The notes beneath the pieces are model-generated. The model saw only the letters and a program-made list of their open reading frames with translations, had not been told where the DNA came from and did no database searches. Both the position numbers and the translations under genes were made by a program. From Spirochaetia bacterium (GTDB lineage Bacteria > Spirochaetota > Spirochaetia > SZUA-6 > Bin103), in assembly GCA_965203905.1 (NCBI GenBank), contig CBDBDQ010000005.1, positions 2,592,001-2,656,000 of the forward strand: DNA of 64,000 nt, read 5' to 3'. Shown piece by piece: positions 26,343 through 31,008 of this stretch (positions within the stretch are counted from its first letter, which is position 1; each line of letters opens with the position of its first letter).

Positions 26343-26460
26343 CGCGACCGGTAATGTACTGCGCCGCCGCGGTTTTGGTAAGCCCGCACGGGTCGTGGCG
26401 AGCCTGGAACGAGGCCACGAATTCGGTATATTGCTGACTCGGGGCGAGGGACGAGGGACG

Positions 26461-27801
26461 ATGGCGAGCAACATCCTGGATTCGATAGACCGGCTCAAGC
26501 AGGAGCTCGACGAGTTGCGGCCGCTGCCGCCGGAGGTTACCGGCCGGGTGGAGCAGAAGCTGAGGATCGAGTCCAACTACCACTCCAATGCACTCGAGGG
26601 AAATACCCTTACGCTCGGCGAGACCCGCAGCCTGGTACTGCACGGCCTCACGGCGCGCGGCAAGCCGATGCGCGAGCACCTCGACATCGAAGGCTACGAC
26701 CGCGCGGTCAAGGAACTCTCACGGAGGGCGAGCGAAGACCAGCGGCTGAACGAGACGTTCATCCTCAATCTGCATCGGGTGCTGTTGAAGGAACCGTACG
26801 AAGTGGAAACATCCGCTCCAGACGGCAGAAACACGAGACGGCCCATCGCCATCGGCGCGTACAAGACCACGCCCAACAACATCGTGACCTCCACCGGGGA
26901 GACCTACTACTTCACGCCGCCCGAACAGGTGCCGCGGTCAATGAGCGCCCTGCTCGACTGGTACCATGCGCGAGAAGACGAGGGCGAGCATCCGATCATC
27001 ATCGCGGCAATCTTTCACTACCGCTTCGTCCGAATCCATCCGTTCGACGACGGCAACGGCCGCATGGCGCGCCTGCTGATGAACCGGATCCTGCTCGACC
27101 ACGGCTACCCCTTGGCGATCGTGCGGAGGGACGCCCGCGACCGCTACCTGCAGGAGCTGGAGCGGGCCGACCAGACCGAGGATCCCGGCCAGTTCATCGA
27201 CTACATCGCATCCTGCTGCGAATACCCGCTGAATCTCTACCTGCGCGCCGCCCGCGGCGAGTCGATCGAGGACAGCGATGAGATCGATCGCGACATAGCC
27301 CGGTTCCGGCAGGCGCTGGTGGCAGGGACGGGAGCGCACGATCAAGTGGACCTCCGGCACTACATGGCGGCGGTGGTGCTGCCGTTCCATGCCTACTGTC
27401 GTACGAAGTTTCGCGCCCTCACTGCGGACCTGTTCAGCCCGGGCGGGGATACGCCGCCACGGGTCACCGGCCGCAACGCCGACGGGCGCAACTTTCGCCT
27501 CGCTCGCGTCAGCGAAGCCGACAAGGTGCCGCAACGAGCTTCAGACGTAGCCATCGAATTCGGTTTCTCATCCGTGGATTTTCAAAATACCGATTGGACG
27601 ATCAGCACGGTCATCAAGAACACCGTGAGGAGAGGCGAGTACAACTGGGAGCTGATGATCTTCTATGTTGCGCCGGCCGCGGACGACTTCGCGATTCGGT
27701 TGGACAGCGATGATCCGGACGAGTTGAAGACGGCGTTCAACCGGCTGCTGCGAGACATGATGGGGACCATGAAGCTGTGGGATTCCCAGTCCAAGAACTG
27801 A
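26461..27801 (+). CDS. Fic family AMPylase with N-terminal autoinhibitory motif and C-terminal extension
   Basis: HPFDDGNGRMAR; SNALEGN inhibitory motif. Confidence 0.9.
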   Translation: MASNILDSIDRLKQELDELRPLPPEVTGRVEQKLRIESNYHSNALEGNTLTLGETRSLVLHGLTARGKPMREHLDIEGYDRAVKELSRRASEDQRLNETFILNLHRVLLKEPYEVETSAPDGRNTRRPIAIGAYKTTPNNIVTSTGETYYFTPPEQVPRSMSALLDWYHAREDEGEHPIIIAAIFHYRFVRIHPFDDGNGRMARLLMNRILLDHGYPLAIVRRDARDRYLQELERADQTEDPGQFIDYIASCCEYPLNLYLRAARGESIEDSDEIDRDIARFRQALVAGTGAHDQVDLRHYMAAVVLPFHAYCRTKFRALTADLFSPGGDTPPRVTGRNADGRNFRLARVSEADKVPQRASDVAIEFGFSSVDFQNTDWTISTVIKNTVRRGEYNWELMIFYVAPAADDFAIRLDSDDPDELKTAFNRLLRDMMGTMKLWDSQSKN

Positions 27802-27842: not shown

Positions 27843-29000
27843 TTACTGCGCCAGCGCCCCTTGACCGAGGCGCCGTACGAAGTCGGCGGCGGGGATTATG
27901 TCGATACCGTCCTCGGTGCGGCGGGCGCTTGGCTCCAGACAGACGACGATGCGCAGGCGTACACCGGGATGCTCCTCAAGCAGCGTGCGCAGCCCGCGCA
28001 GATGATCACGGGTGATGCGGGCACTAGCCTTTGCCTCCATAGCAACCTCCATGTCGCCGAGCACGAAGTCCACCTCGATGCCGCTCGGCAGTCGCCAGTA
28101 GGTGAGTTCGAGGTCCCACTCCTGGTACTCGATGCAGGCGGACAGCTCGTGAAAGACCCAGTTCTCGAACGCCTTCCCGTAGAGCTGCGCTCCCGGGGCC
28201 AACTCGCCGCGACGGCTCAGACGGTTCACCACCCCGACGTCGGCGAAGTAGAACTTCGGAGCACCGATCAGGCGGCGCTTGCGGCGCCGGCGGTACGCGC
28301 TCAGCCAGCGACCGAGCAAGCTGTCGACCAGGATTTCGAAGTAGGCCTTGGCGGTGGGGCTGGACACGCCGCACTCGCGTGCGATGTTGGAGAAGTTGAC
28401 CATCTCTCCATCGCTGAGCGCGGCAGCATCCAGGAACCCGGAGAACGCCGGCAGATTGCGCACCAGCCCCTCCGCCGCGACCTCTTCGCGCAGGTAATCG
28501 GCGACGTAGGCGTCGAGCAGGCGGCGCGGACGGGCGGCCTGGTAGATGCGCGGCAGGTAGCCGTGGTTCAGCATCCGATTCAGGTCGAAGGCCGTGCCCA
28601 ACTCGCCGGCGGTGAAGCCGCGCAGCTCGTAGCGCACGGCCCTTCCCCCGAGCAGATTGGCCGCGCCACGGCGCACCTTGCGGGCGCTTGAACCGCACAA
28701 TGCGAACTGAAATCCGCGATTCTCGATCAGCCAGTGCACCTCGTCGAGCAGCGCGGGCACCTTCTGAACCTCGTCGATGACGACCTGTCGTCCGGCAGGC
28801 GCGGTCGCCGATGCCAATTCCTGGCGCAGGTACTCGGGATGCTCGAGATAGCGCCGGAACACGTCGCTTTGCAGCAGATCGACCCAGTGCGCATCGGGGT
28901 AGCTCTGCCGGAGCAGCGTGCTCTTGCCAGCCTGCCGCGGCCCCCACAGAAAGAAGCTCTCGCTTCCAGCCGTCGGCAGCAGCAGGGATCTGTTGAACAT
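27843..29000 (-). CDS. AAA_14 ATPase with DUF4143 domain
   Basis: GPRQAGKST, IDEVQK, CGSS, KFYFAD, EVDF..EAK. Confidence 0.9.
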   Translation of the reverse strand: MFNRSLLLPTAGSESFFLWGPRQAGKSTLLRQSYPDAHWVDLLQSDVFRRYLEHPEYLRQELASATAPAGRQVVIDEVQKVPALLDEVHWLIENRGFQFALCGSSARKVRRGAANLLGGRAVRYELRGFTAGELGTAFDLNRMLNHGYLPRIYQAARPRRLLDAYVADYLREEVAAEGLVRNLPAFSGFLDAAALSDGEMVNFSNIARECGVSSPTAKAYFEILVDSLLGRWLSAYRRRRKRRLIGAPKFYFADVGVVNRLSRRGELAPGAQLYGKAFENWVFHELSACIEYQEWDLELTYWRLPSGIEVDFVLGDMEVAMEAKASARITRDHLRGLRTLLEEHPGVRLRIVVCLEPSARRTEDGIDIIPAADFVRRLGQGALAQ

Positions 29001-29053: not shown

Positions 29054-29401
29054 CTACCTGATGTAGTAGCCGGACACCCGCCAGGCGTCGCGGTCCCACA
29101 TGGCGGTGACGGTCTCAACCGCCGCCTGCTTGTGGGCGTAGGCTGCGGCAAAAGCGAGCACCCAGTAGCGGCCGTCGGGAGCGCCGGGAAGGGTGTCGTG
29201 ATGCTCGGCGGCAGTCAGGGAGCGAGAGTCCAGTTCACCCATCGGACCGAGCGCGGCTCGGAGGGCCTGCGCAAGTTGATCTTCCGTCACGGCGCCGCGC
29301 ATCAGCTCGGCCGCGCTCGACCAACAAGCCGGGTAGTCGCCGGCATCGAGCAGCGCGAGCCACTCGCGTGCGGCTCCCAGCGCCTCGTCTCGCTCAGTCA
29401 T
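29054..29401 (-). CDS. DUF4019 domain protein
   Basis: WLALLDAGDY, LPGAPDGRY, ETVT, WRVSGYYIR. Confidence 0.8.
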   Translation of the reverse strand: MTERDEALGAAREWLALLDAGDYPACWSSAAELMRGAVTEDQLAQALRAALGPMGELDSRSLTAAEHHDTLPGAPDGRYWVLAFAAAYAHKQAAVETVTAMWDRDAWRVSGYYIR

Positions 29402-29637
29402 TCGAGCCCCGGGGTCGGGCGCGCGCAGGTCATCCTCATCCCACAGCAGTGTACTCGATAACCCCGCTGTATCACGCAAGCAATGCCACGCGAGGACCCA
29501 GCGCAGATGCCGACGAAAATCTCGACTCTGGCGGTGGCCGCGGCGACCCGCGACGCATATATTGATCGTTCGTTCCAGACTGAGGGCTCCGCACGGGGCA
29601 ATCACGGACGGCCAACGCAACAGCAAGGAGCAGCCCG

Positions 29638-30174
29638 ATGCCGACTGAACAGAACAGGCTTTACCTCTACGAGGCACTCGAACTGCGTGCAGAGTACGAT
29701 GCGCGCATCAAGACCTTGCGCGACTGCCTGCCGGAGACGCGCAGGAACCGGGACCGGCTCGGCATGTACCGCAACGAGGAGCTGCAACTTCGCGCGGCCG
29801 ACGACTTCGACGTGGCCGCGGTTCAGGAGTCGTTGCGGGCGCTGGAGCACAAGCGGCGCAAGCTCAACAACGCCATCCAGCGCGCCAACTACGCGCATAC
29901 CGTGAACGCCACCGGTGAGTTGCTCGACCTGAGCGAAGCTCTGGAGGTGCGCAAGGGTATGTCCGACCGCATCGGTGAGCTGCACACCCAGAGCGTGCAA
30001 TCCGCCTACGTGCGCGTGATCTACAAGGAAGGCCGCGACATCGTGGAGCCCAACGACGCCACCTTCGCCGCCAGCATGGCGCAACTCGAGTCGGTACGGC
30101 GGGCGTTCCGTGACCTCAACCGCGCGTTGCGCGCGGCCAGCTTCACGGTCGTGGTCGACTTCACGGACGAGTAG
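29638..30174 (+). CDS. DIP1984/DUF6847-like coiled-coil protein
   Basis: Two-fold repeat LYEALELR..IQRAN / LSEALEVR..LRAASF, typical of this family; RBS AAGGAG. Confidence 0.75.
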   Translation: MPTEQNRLYLYEALELRAEYDARIKTLRDCLPETRRNRDRLGMYRNEELQLRAADDFDVAAVQESLRALEHKRRKLNNAIQRANYAHTVNATGELLDLSEALEVRKGMSDRIGELHTQSVQSAYVRVIYKEGRDIVEPNDATFAASMAQLESVRRAFRDLNRALRAASFTVVVDFTDE

Positions 30175-30177
30175 GAC

Positions 30178-30479
30178 GCAGGGCCACTTGGTGGCGCCGG
30201 AGACCATGAAGACCGATGCAGCGGGTTCGCCTGCTGGACATGGTTTTCGGAGTAGCGGGAAGCCAGAAAAATCGAGCAGGAGACGGGGGAGTAGGTGCGA
30301 GTCTCCCGGCGACGGGAGCGTAGCCCAGTAGATTGGCGACTGCGACAGCGATGAACATAGGTTTGAAACGCCCTAGTTTCCGGTAAAGCCCGGCAGCCGG
30401 GCAGCACCTCAGCGTCACAGCGAGCACAGCCCGAAAGCGAAACAGCATCATGACTCCGAGTCTCCTGCTCTTTCTTCCT
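30178..30479 (+). ncRNA. Candidate structured ncRNA downstream of the DIP1984-like gene
   Basis: Several helices with G-U pairs, UUCG and GCGA tetraloops, an 11-bp long-range stem 30274-30284/30460-30470, and a periodic CAGC array; no credible ORF. Confidence 0.7.
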
Positions 30480-30495
30480 CGCGCCGCGAACGGTC

Positions 30496-30978
30496 TCAAC
30501 ACGGAAGGCCGCGCGGGCTCCAGCCTTCGATCAGGGCGGTCACTTCTTCGATCGTGCGATAGCAGGCGGCACGGAACTCCGGAGTGAGGCCGAGTGCGGT
30601 CACCGTGTGCTCGAATTCGTCCTCGTCGAGGACGATCGGTCGTTCGCCGGTCCGACGGGCCACGTCCAGTTCGTAGTCGGTATAGTGCAACTCGCCGTCG
30701 ACAACTTGCGCCGGGCTGGCGATGTGGACGTAGATCTCCGAGAGGGCGCCGGCGTCGTCGTAGAGCTCCAGCAGGTTGTAGGGCCGATCGAACCAGTAGC
30801 AGGCCCGGATGTCGGCCTGTGAGGCCCAGCCGCCCTTGGGCCCGCCAACGGGGTTGCCACGCCGGGAGAACGTATGCACGCCGCGGCTGTCCACCGTTTC
30901 GACCGCGCTCGTCCACCATCGCCGACGGGTGCCATCCAGGTTGAACACGACCACGTTGACTGCATCGCCCGCTCGCAT
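30496..30978 (-). CDS. DUF402 domain protein
   Basis: IYVHIASP, TDYELDV, VLDEDEF. Confidence 0.8.
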   Translation of the reverse strand: MRAGDAVNVVVFNLDGTRRRWWTSAVETVDSRGVHTFSRRGNPVGGPKGGWASQADIRACYWFDRPYNLLELYDDAGALSEIYVHIASPAQVVDGELHYTDYELDVARRTGERPIVLDEDEFEHTVTALGLTPEFRAACYRTIEEVTALIEGWSPRGLPC

Positions 30979-31008
30979 CGCTTTGAGCCACGCTACCGCG
31001 TTGTGGTG

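Follow-up and report, generated by a model that had tools for sequence, protein, structure and literature searches.

In the window analysed here, a 64,000-nucleotide (nt) stretch of contig CBDBDQ010000005.1 from a Spirochaetia bacterium, an open reading frame (ORF) for a 178-amino-acid (aa) protein of the DIP1984/DUF6847 type (29638-30174, + strand) is followed by a gap of 321 nt, and the question raised by this locus is whether the gap encodes an RNA that belongs to the gene. The initial annotation had proposed that a DIP1984-like gene precedes a folded RNA of ~300 nt, and all of the sequence elements that it listed are present where it placed them. A conserved RNA does lie in the gap, but its size is ~195 nt, not ~300 nt; it occupies 30274-30470 on the + strand, as delimited by the match to a covariance model, the alignment of homologues and pair counts. 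The proposed coupling of a + strand structured RNA to the DIP1984-like gene is complete in the loci examined. Judged from these sequences, the chances are about even that the gene at 29638-30174 and the ~195-nt RNA form a protein-RNA pair, carried in a patchy and often decaying cassette.

Structure of the RNA element

By building a covariance model (R1) from 73 distinct sequences and searching it against the window, a single match was obtained in the 64 kb, at 30274-30475, with a score of 138.9 bits (E 5.5e-36). Folding of the 73 sequences with RNAalifold predicted the helices P1, P2 and P3, with 17 of 29 pairs changing on both sides. The RNAalifold helices were combined with two pseudoknot helices read from the alignment to give a model of 41 pairs. 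In this model, 90.3% of the 2987 cells are standard pairs, compared with 29.2-43.5% in slid controls, in which the 3' partners are displaced by 1-3 columns; the percentage paired in the model is somewhat favoured because the structure was partly derived from the same 73 sequences. A covarying structure behind homologues had been suggested as a check on the initial annotation, and 28 of the 41 pairs show changes in both partners; the slid controls have 10-16 pairs of this kind and the shuffles 17.3 ± 1.6. Each of the seven helices of the model contributes at least two such pairs, and none of the 500 shuffles reached the observed values on any of five measures. Relatedness is corrected for by the slid control, not by the shuffle control.

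The closing helix P1 has 11 bp, its 5' strand GAGCAGGAGAC (30274-30284) pairing with 30460-30470. The P1 core GGAGAC/GUCUCC is nearly invariant, with A-U replaced by G-C in 4 sequences, and the outer pairs covary (CG 21, AU 19, UA 16). In P2, GGAGU (30288-30292) pairs with ACUCC (30453-30457); 100% of the cells of this helix are paired, and C-G is replaced by U-A in 11 sequences, the window among them. P3 is the hairpin CUCCCG-GCGA-CGGGAG (30303-30318), in which 30303-30308 pairs with 30313-30318 around the GNRA loop GCGA (30309-30312). In the helix to which P3 belongs, seven of the ten pairs have changes in both partners. The loop reads GYGA in nearly all sequences. The long-range helix, its GGAGU/ACUCC extension and the GNRA hairpin had all been pointed out in the initial annotation, and covariation supports each of them. 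On the other hand, the outer GGAAG/CUUCC extension proposed there is not conserved, nor is the hairpin GCCCGG-CAG-CCGGGC, which falls in a variable repeat track.

Between P3 and this track, the junction UAGCCC (30321-30326) is nearly invariant in the alignment and is also kept in the divergent subtype described below. Two pseudoknots follow, neither of which had been noticed before. In pseudoknot 1 (30326-30352), the pairing of CAGU (30326-30329) with ACUG (30339-30342) is interleaved with that of 30333-30338 with 30347-30352; all six pairs of helix 5 in this pseudoknot show two-sided changes, and in the window the register is offset by one base. The next segment (30360-30383) consists of a hairpin (30360-30362/30370-30372), the loop of which pairs through GAAA (30365-30368) with UUUC (30377-30380) to form pseudoknot 2, and an invariant CGG (30381-30383). 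In the hairpin and pseudoknot 2 (helices 6 and 7), 3/3 and 4/4 pairs, respectively, change on both sides. After the track, the alignment and pair counts place the 3' strands of P2 and P1 at 30453-30470, and a U-rich tail, UUUCUU (30471-30476), comes next. A further conserved sequence, (U/C)AUGG, is found by P2 (30450-30457 in the window, and at homologous positions), opposite GC-AAG. It resembles what we take to be half of the classic 11-nt GNRA-tetraloop receptor and could dock the GNRA loop of P3.

Three observations place the RNA on the + strand: GU cells outnumber AC cells (145 vs 60), the P3 loop is of the GNRA type on this strand only, and all 80 of 80 R1 matches are on the strand of the gene. 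Folding energies for 30175-30495 are -132.6 kcal/mol on the + strand (z -2.48, 1/100 shuffles as good) and -128.4 kcal/mol on the - strand (z -2.24, 3/100 shuffles as good); the thermodynamic evidence for a structure, taken alone, is weak.

These modest z-scores, alike on both strands, are what would be expected if the structure were due to chance, a dispersed repeat or a small protein-coding gene, and the first ~85 nt of the gap are in fact a real dispersed repeat. With the gap as query against the whole 8-Mb genome, its own locus and 21 other places were matched at 76-91% identity, and all 21 extra matches are confined to query bases 2-90 (30176-30264). Alignment of 8 copies gave a unit of ~85 nt with ends of the TAGTAC...GGACTAG type; here it lies at 30172-30256, between the stop codon and the RNA, with no strand assigned. 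At least 22 copies are present in the genome (others, for example, in L002-L008 near position 1500). The unit contains the hairpins GCCAC-UUG-GUGGC and CCGGAGACCAUG/CAUGGUUUUCGG, the first two that the initial annotation had counted as part of the gene's RNA; they belong instead to the repeat, with its 21 other genome copies. In 8 relatives with a full gene the repeat is missing at the locus, and the conserved element begins ~20 nt after the stop codon. The repeat is thus an insertion resembling a miniature inverted-repeat transposable element (MITE) at the stop codon in this lineage, outside the gene-linked RNA. Copies of it are also held by RNA-library contigs of a relative (run X18).

A dispersed genomic repeat had been named in the initial annotation as an outcome that would speak against it. 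This outcome holds for the first ~85 nt, but not for 30274-30470, which is single-copy in the genome (query 30257-30495) and covaries strongly. Similarly, no coding signal was found in the element, in which the median longest closed ORF has 22 codons on the + strand and 24 on the - strand, and no codon-like gap pattern, since gap runs of 1, 0 and 2 mod 3 number 444, 107 and 105; a conserved small ORF is ruled out by these lengths and this pattern. For 30274-30470, an origin in chance, a repeat or a coding gene is therefore refuted, and we assign it next to no probability.

Linkage of the RNA to one protein subfamily

In 98 loci, drawn from two phyla and many metagenomes, the RNA stands behind the gene and has its orientation; these loci comprise 9 from the 41 related genomes, 79 metagenome loci, L034, 6 divergent loci and 3 genomes of the second phylum. 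Among the loci examined, no full-length gene with enough downstream sequence lacks the RNA. In the 41 related genomes, a DNA search detected the RNA in 10, the window's own included, and the protein was detected in 11, of which ten are identical to the RNA-bearing genomes and the eleventh is a 22-bit match in G032. The metagenome set comprised at least 590 pattern-matching stretches, at least 191 of them encoding a relative, and the best 80 were kept (L035-L114). In 79 of these 80 loci the RNA is present, complete in 76 and cut by the contig end in 3; the 80th contig stops at the stop codon. R1 matches 80 of 81 loci, once each, the sole miss being the contig that ends at the stop codon (L080). 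As most of these sequences built the model, this count confirms position and uniqueness, not discovery.

More distant loci show the same arrangement. In five divergent homologues, which come from other families within the phylum, the RNA lies immediately 3' of the gene (35.7-53.4 bits, E 2e-8 to 4e-13), and with L142 as the sixth, the RNA is found in 6 of the 6 divergent homologues that have downstream sequence. In the second phylum, it is found in three genomes plus L034's own genome. By contrast with the window subfamily, 20 canonical DUF6847 loci, mostly from one AT-rich genus, gave 0 matches to R1 at E up to 10, and on reading, no shared downstream element was seen in 19 canonical loci, some of which have terminator-like hairpins. 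The RNA is strictly linked to one subfamily of proteins with the DIP1984 fold.

The limits of the cassette can be read from a comparison of two genera of the family, which are alignable only over 29638-30176 (the gene) and 30276-30478 (the RNA), with differing flanks. Its distribution is sparse: of 401 genomes sampled in the phylum, 8 carry the gene (in one of them the match is weak and interrupted by stop codons), as do 4 of 122 genomes of one order and 4 of 401 genomes of the second phylum. Remnants were also found. In G005 (L028), all that is left is the final 40 codons of the gene together with the RNA's 3' half; G021 (L143) and G023 (L145) have only the 3' half of the RNA left; and G027 (L144) has only the 5' core, model positions 24-129. 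In G021, G023 and G027 the gene is undetectable (tblastn best E 1.0), and wherever an intact RNA was seen in the 41 related genomes, the gene was intact as well. Gene and RNA together make up a two-part cassette, whose halves are gained and lost jointly.

The placement of the RNA could also mean that it is a cis-acting 3' untranslated region, serving its own mRNA as a terminator, as an exonuclease block or stabiliser, or as an autoregulatory site, with no lasting particle. In 73 of 78 loci the RNA begins 4-24 nt after the stop codon (the other five distances are 53 nt in 3 loci, 215 nt and 300 nt), it is always on the gene's strand, and the U-rich tail behind P1/P2, which resembles that of an intrinsic terminator, is seen in 31 of the 73 sequences. 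However, this tail is missing from the other 42, and the ~195-nt fold, with its pair of pseudoknots, its invariant junctions and a periodic track of conserved length, goes far beyond the needs of a terminator or stabiliser. In addition, no conserved operator-like motif was seen in 46 upstream regions, and the gene and the RNA can be separated by insertions of as many as 300 nt. A role restricted to the 3' end of the message is consequently rather unlikely in our estimation.

The gene and the RNA may well be transcribed together, and the RNA element is present in RNA libraries. Four libraries, whose run labels are sponge and coral metagenomes, hold small shares of the stretch. The X20 contigs cover 30284-30333 with 0 differences and 30304-30460 with 2 differences; an X19 contig covers 30057-30190 exactly; and the X18 contigs cover the gene and 30412-30515 at 90-95% identity, an identity which means that X18 holds a relative. 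All of these are assembled contigs, from which ends, strand and level are unreadable; for the same reason, the uncovered parts, and the coverage of the RNA element only in X20, are unreadable as differential expression. A promoter and terminator scan of 29300-30700 gave no promoter-like sites and one terminator-like site, on the - strand (29344-29328), no more than shuffles yield.

The candidate partner protein and the periodic track

Sequence profiles relate the protein to its family weakly. Against Pfam DUF6847 (PF20935, cut-off 27 bits), it scores 26.1 by hmmscan and 27.1, over the cut-off, in a six-frame search of the genome, and most homologues carry a precomputed PF20935 label. The NCBIfam model DIP1984_fam (NF038048) gives 30.2 bits against a cut-off of 70, with residues 10-86 aligned to profile positions 75-146. 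In a profile search, 764 homologues were found at E<=1e-3 among 8000 scored candidates, nearly all of 177-181 aa and none of them named; an exhaustive search of 50%-identity representatives gave 226 clusters at E<=1e-3 and 51 at E<=1e-30. In a protein atlas, DUF6847-labelled clusters were seen together with two clusters that have many viral members, which is a lead only.

The fold is clearer. The AlphaFold model (AF2, 83 sequences; predicted local distance difference test score 88.9) shows four long helices and two beta-hairpins, arranged as a compact, internally duplicated helix-hairpin plus beta-hairpin domain and not as a simple coiled coil. As the name DIP1984-like had implied, it agrees with 3kdq_A (VIA Z 13.1, root-mean-square deviation 2.8 Å, 152/152 residues), while the next entry has a Z of 7.9. 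Foldseek likewise gave 3KDQ as the only clear structural relative (E 1.3e-4, TM 0.66-0.78, probability 1.00). This entry is the DIP1984 protein of Corynebacterium diphtheriae, released in 2009, of unknown function and often annotated as 'septicolysin'. The internal duplication is also visible in the sequence (EALELRAEYDARIKTL vs EALEVRKGMSDRIGEL); residues 8-27 correspond to 96-115 and residues 75-89 to 159-173, a duplicated unit of ~85 aa with two helices and a beta-hairpin. Because the protein looks internally duplicated, the Pfam model aligns to its first half only. Many positions are invariant Arg, Lys, Glu or Asp, and the C-terminal F-x-D-E is conserved. Compared with canonical DIP1984/DUF6847 proteins, the window protein has the same fold and weak profile similarity but is longer (177-181 aa in its subfamily vs ~150), and only its subfamily carries the RNA in the comparison with 20 canonical loci. 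The protein thus represents a new and distinct subfamily of the DIP1984 fold, a fold with no known function.

On the RNA side, an unusual part is an unpaired track of 66 nt (30384-30449, + strand) between the CGG and the 3' strand of P2, which consists of ~8 units of 8 nt, each beginning with AGC. In near-perfect register, the window reads AGCCCGGC AGCCGGGC AGCACCUC AGCGUCAC AGCGAGCAC AGCCCGAA AGCGAAAC AGCAUC. The track measures 64-66 nt in most sequences and 75 nt in L034, and no conserved pairing was found within it in the 73-sequence alignment; GCCCGG-CAG-CCGGGC amounts to two track units, and relatives have no such hairpin. The 73 track segments contain 394 AGC triplets, compared with 91 ± 9 in mononucleotide shuffles, and A[G/A]C recurs most often at a distance of 8 nt (191 intervals), a periodicity that the initial annotation had not described.

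A second subtype of the RNA is found in L116-L120 and L142 (for example, L118:1273-1491, - strand). P1, P2, P3 and UAGCCC are kept, the helices of the middle domain differ, and RNAalifold on the 6 sequences gave 35 pairs, with two-sided changes in 16. In its track, UUAC every 7-8 nt takes the place of AGC every 8 nt. The proteins encoded at these loci are 25-34% identical to the window protein, and the switch from AGC to UUAC follows the division between the protein clades. A track conserved in length, with a motif that changes with the protein clade, is unusual and points to multivalent recognition.

Repeated short motifs in unpaired regions are also typical of sponge RNAs such as CsrB and RsmZ, and the track is sponge-like in this respect. 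The RNA could accordingly act in trans on a partner other than the adjacent protein, as a sponge, a ribozyme or a ligand-binding RNA, the linkage then reflecting a shared pathway. The invariant junction nucleotides could form a pocket, and the protein is without a recognisable RNA-binding fold. Against this, the gene is the sole companion of the RNA across phyla, the two decay jointly, and the motif changes with the protein clade; we hold a different partner to be possible but doubtful.

Based on the gene-RNA linkage alone, we infer that the protein binds the RNA, and the following mechanism may be envisaged for a protein-RNA pair. The promoter of the gene would drive gene and RNA as one transcript. 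In this transcript, P1 and P2 would close the RNA, and the GNRA hairpin, the invariant junctions and the two pseudoknots would form a compact core, which would display the 64-66-nt single-stranded, A-rich track with its motif period of 7-8 nt. The structured core may be the specific loading or recognition site for the DIP1984-fold protein, and the periodic track may take several protomers, about eight, in a manner likened to TRAP or CsrA. The pair behaves as an accessory, often lost module, which would fit a toxin neutralised by the RNA or a function in defence; such a toxin-antitoxin-like or defence-like role is suggested only by how patchily the cassette is distributed, by its neighbours and by how often it decays.

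Several observations weigh against such a pair. The protein is not basic overall (pI 6.0, K+R 28 vs D+E 30), and the fold searches returned no known RNA-binding fold among its structural matches. PADLOC-DB 2.0 gave 0 families for the protein, and no relatives were found in plasmids and phages (tblastn) or in IMG/VR (pattern search), a negative that does not prove their absence; a role in defence or as a toxin-antitoxin system is hence purely contextual. The number of AGC triplets per sequence varies from 2 to 9, which indicates that some lineages do not strictly need the motif, and the motif switch is seen in two clades only, in which kin share labels. Insertions of 50-300 nt between gene and RNA are tolerated (in the window, L086/L095/L109, L039 and L068), and as the insertion in the window is a hairpin-rich MITE, co-transcription is not guaranteed in this genome. 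Finally, the RNA-library contigs may contain DNA.

Setting of the cassette and relation to known systems

In the window, the cassette is part of a small islet flanked by housekeeping genes, which otherwise holds a Fic gene, an AAA_14-DUF4143 gene, a DUF4019 gene and a DUF402 gene. The Fic-domain gene (26395-27801, + strand) matches the PADLOC models SoFic and PDC-S04, and the AAA_14-DUF4143 ATPase gene (27843-29000, - strand) matches PADLOC PDC-S01; both are 5' of the cassette. AAA_14-DUF4143 genes adjoin the cassette in 5 metagenome loci as well. The longest ORF of the DUF4019 gene (29054-29677, - strand) overlaps the start of the 178-aa gene by 40 nt; since the DUF4019 Pfam match covers residues 102-204 only, this gene probably begins further downstream in reality, which would make the two genes divergent. 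On the 3' side, the DUF402 gene (30496-30978) is on the - strand, and the 321-nt gap therefore sits between convergent genes.

Across the 80 metagenome loci, no neighbour cluster occurs in more than 16. The commonest, in 16/80, is an IS200-like Y1 transposase fused to a DnaA-C helix-turn-helix domain (for example, L076:1821-2894), whose position relative to the cassette varies, being upstream in some loci and downstream in others; further clusters are PIN, UPF0175/DUF3368, AAA and AAA_14-DUF4143 proteins. The element is ruled out as the leader of a downstream gene, as the neighbours are not conserved and the next gene is convergent. A conserved upstream operator with AGC was likewise discarded: AGC triplets flank the ribosome-binding site in the window and are absent from the other loci among 46 upstream regions. 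A reverse transcriptase, which a retron would have next to it, was absent from the 10 neighbour clusters scanned.

The absence of a known RNA family, which had been stated in the initial annotation, is borne out by Rfam 15, which gave 0 matches at the gathering score for the whole window and 6 typical loci. At E up to 10, the matches were at chance level only, namely mir-221 (E 0.08, - strand, over the MITE) and WT1-AS_4 (E 4.5). A transfer-messenger RNA (tmRNA) was also considered and rejected, as ARAGORN found 0 genes in 29500-31000 and the in-frame stop of the window track is not kept in the sister genus. Among the papers listed by full-text searches, no account of the RNA motif or of a role for DUF6847/DIP1984 was found, and by title and abstract none of the RNA-discovery papers listed is about the motif; supplementary tables of such papers might list it. 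Within the indexed text, the conserved strings of the RNA match three mammalian papers only, and the protein family appears in 'septicolysin' annotations and in one Acinetobacter surveillance paper that mentions the DIP1984 family. On this evidence, the RNA is a new class.

Three kinds of known system offer comparisons. In type III toxin-antitoxin systems (ToxIN, CptIN, TenpIN), tandem repeats of ~36 nt lie upstream of the gene of an endoribonuclease toxin. Like these, the cassette combines a protein gene with a cis-encoded RNA that has a repeated motif, and it is patchy, accessory and often located beside toxin-antitoxin genes and transposases. It differs from the type in that its RNA is downstream of the gene, not upstream; its repeat is of 7-8 nt in a pseudoknotted scaffold, not ~36 nt in tandem; and its protein is helical, with the DIP1984 fold. 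Oligomeric proteins that bind repeated motifs include TRAP on (G/U)AG, CsrA on the GGA of CsrB and RsmZ, and HutP on UAG. The cassette RNA shares with their targets a short motif at fixed spacing in unpaired RNA; however, the motif is AGC or UUAC with a period of 7-8 nt, the track is clamped in a structured scaffold, and the protein fold is unrelated. The third kind is represented by gene-linked particle RNAs, namely OLE with OapA/B/C, Y RNA with Rsr and tmRNA next to smpB. Here too a complex conserved RNA adjoins the gene of its presumed partner, and as in tmRNA, the ends pair and pseudoknots are present. In contrast to these RNAs, the cassette is rare (8/401 and 4/401 genomes in the two phyla), its protein family differs from theirs, and neither Rfam nor ARAGORN detected similarity in sequence or model.

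A stronger version of the protein-RNA pair can be formulated, in which the cassette would be a new class of ribonucleoprotein. A pseudoknotted scaffold RNA in the 3' end of its partner's transcript would hold, on a single-stranded track of 8 units, ~8 protomers of a DIP1984-fold protein, one per AGC or UUAC, and the whole would be a self-contained, horizontally moving module of the toxin-antitoxin or defence type. We put this forward tentatively, as a scheme with a low probability. Large bacterial RNAs of unknown function that are supported by covariation are rare, and several earlier ones are riboswitches, ribozymes or RNA-protein machines. The RNA described here arrives with an obvious candidate partner, a member of a protein family that has had a structure but no function since 2009, and with this candidate at hand the question is directly testable. 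If the ribonucleoprotein reading is true, it would provide the first functional handle on the DIP1984/'septicolysin' fold.

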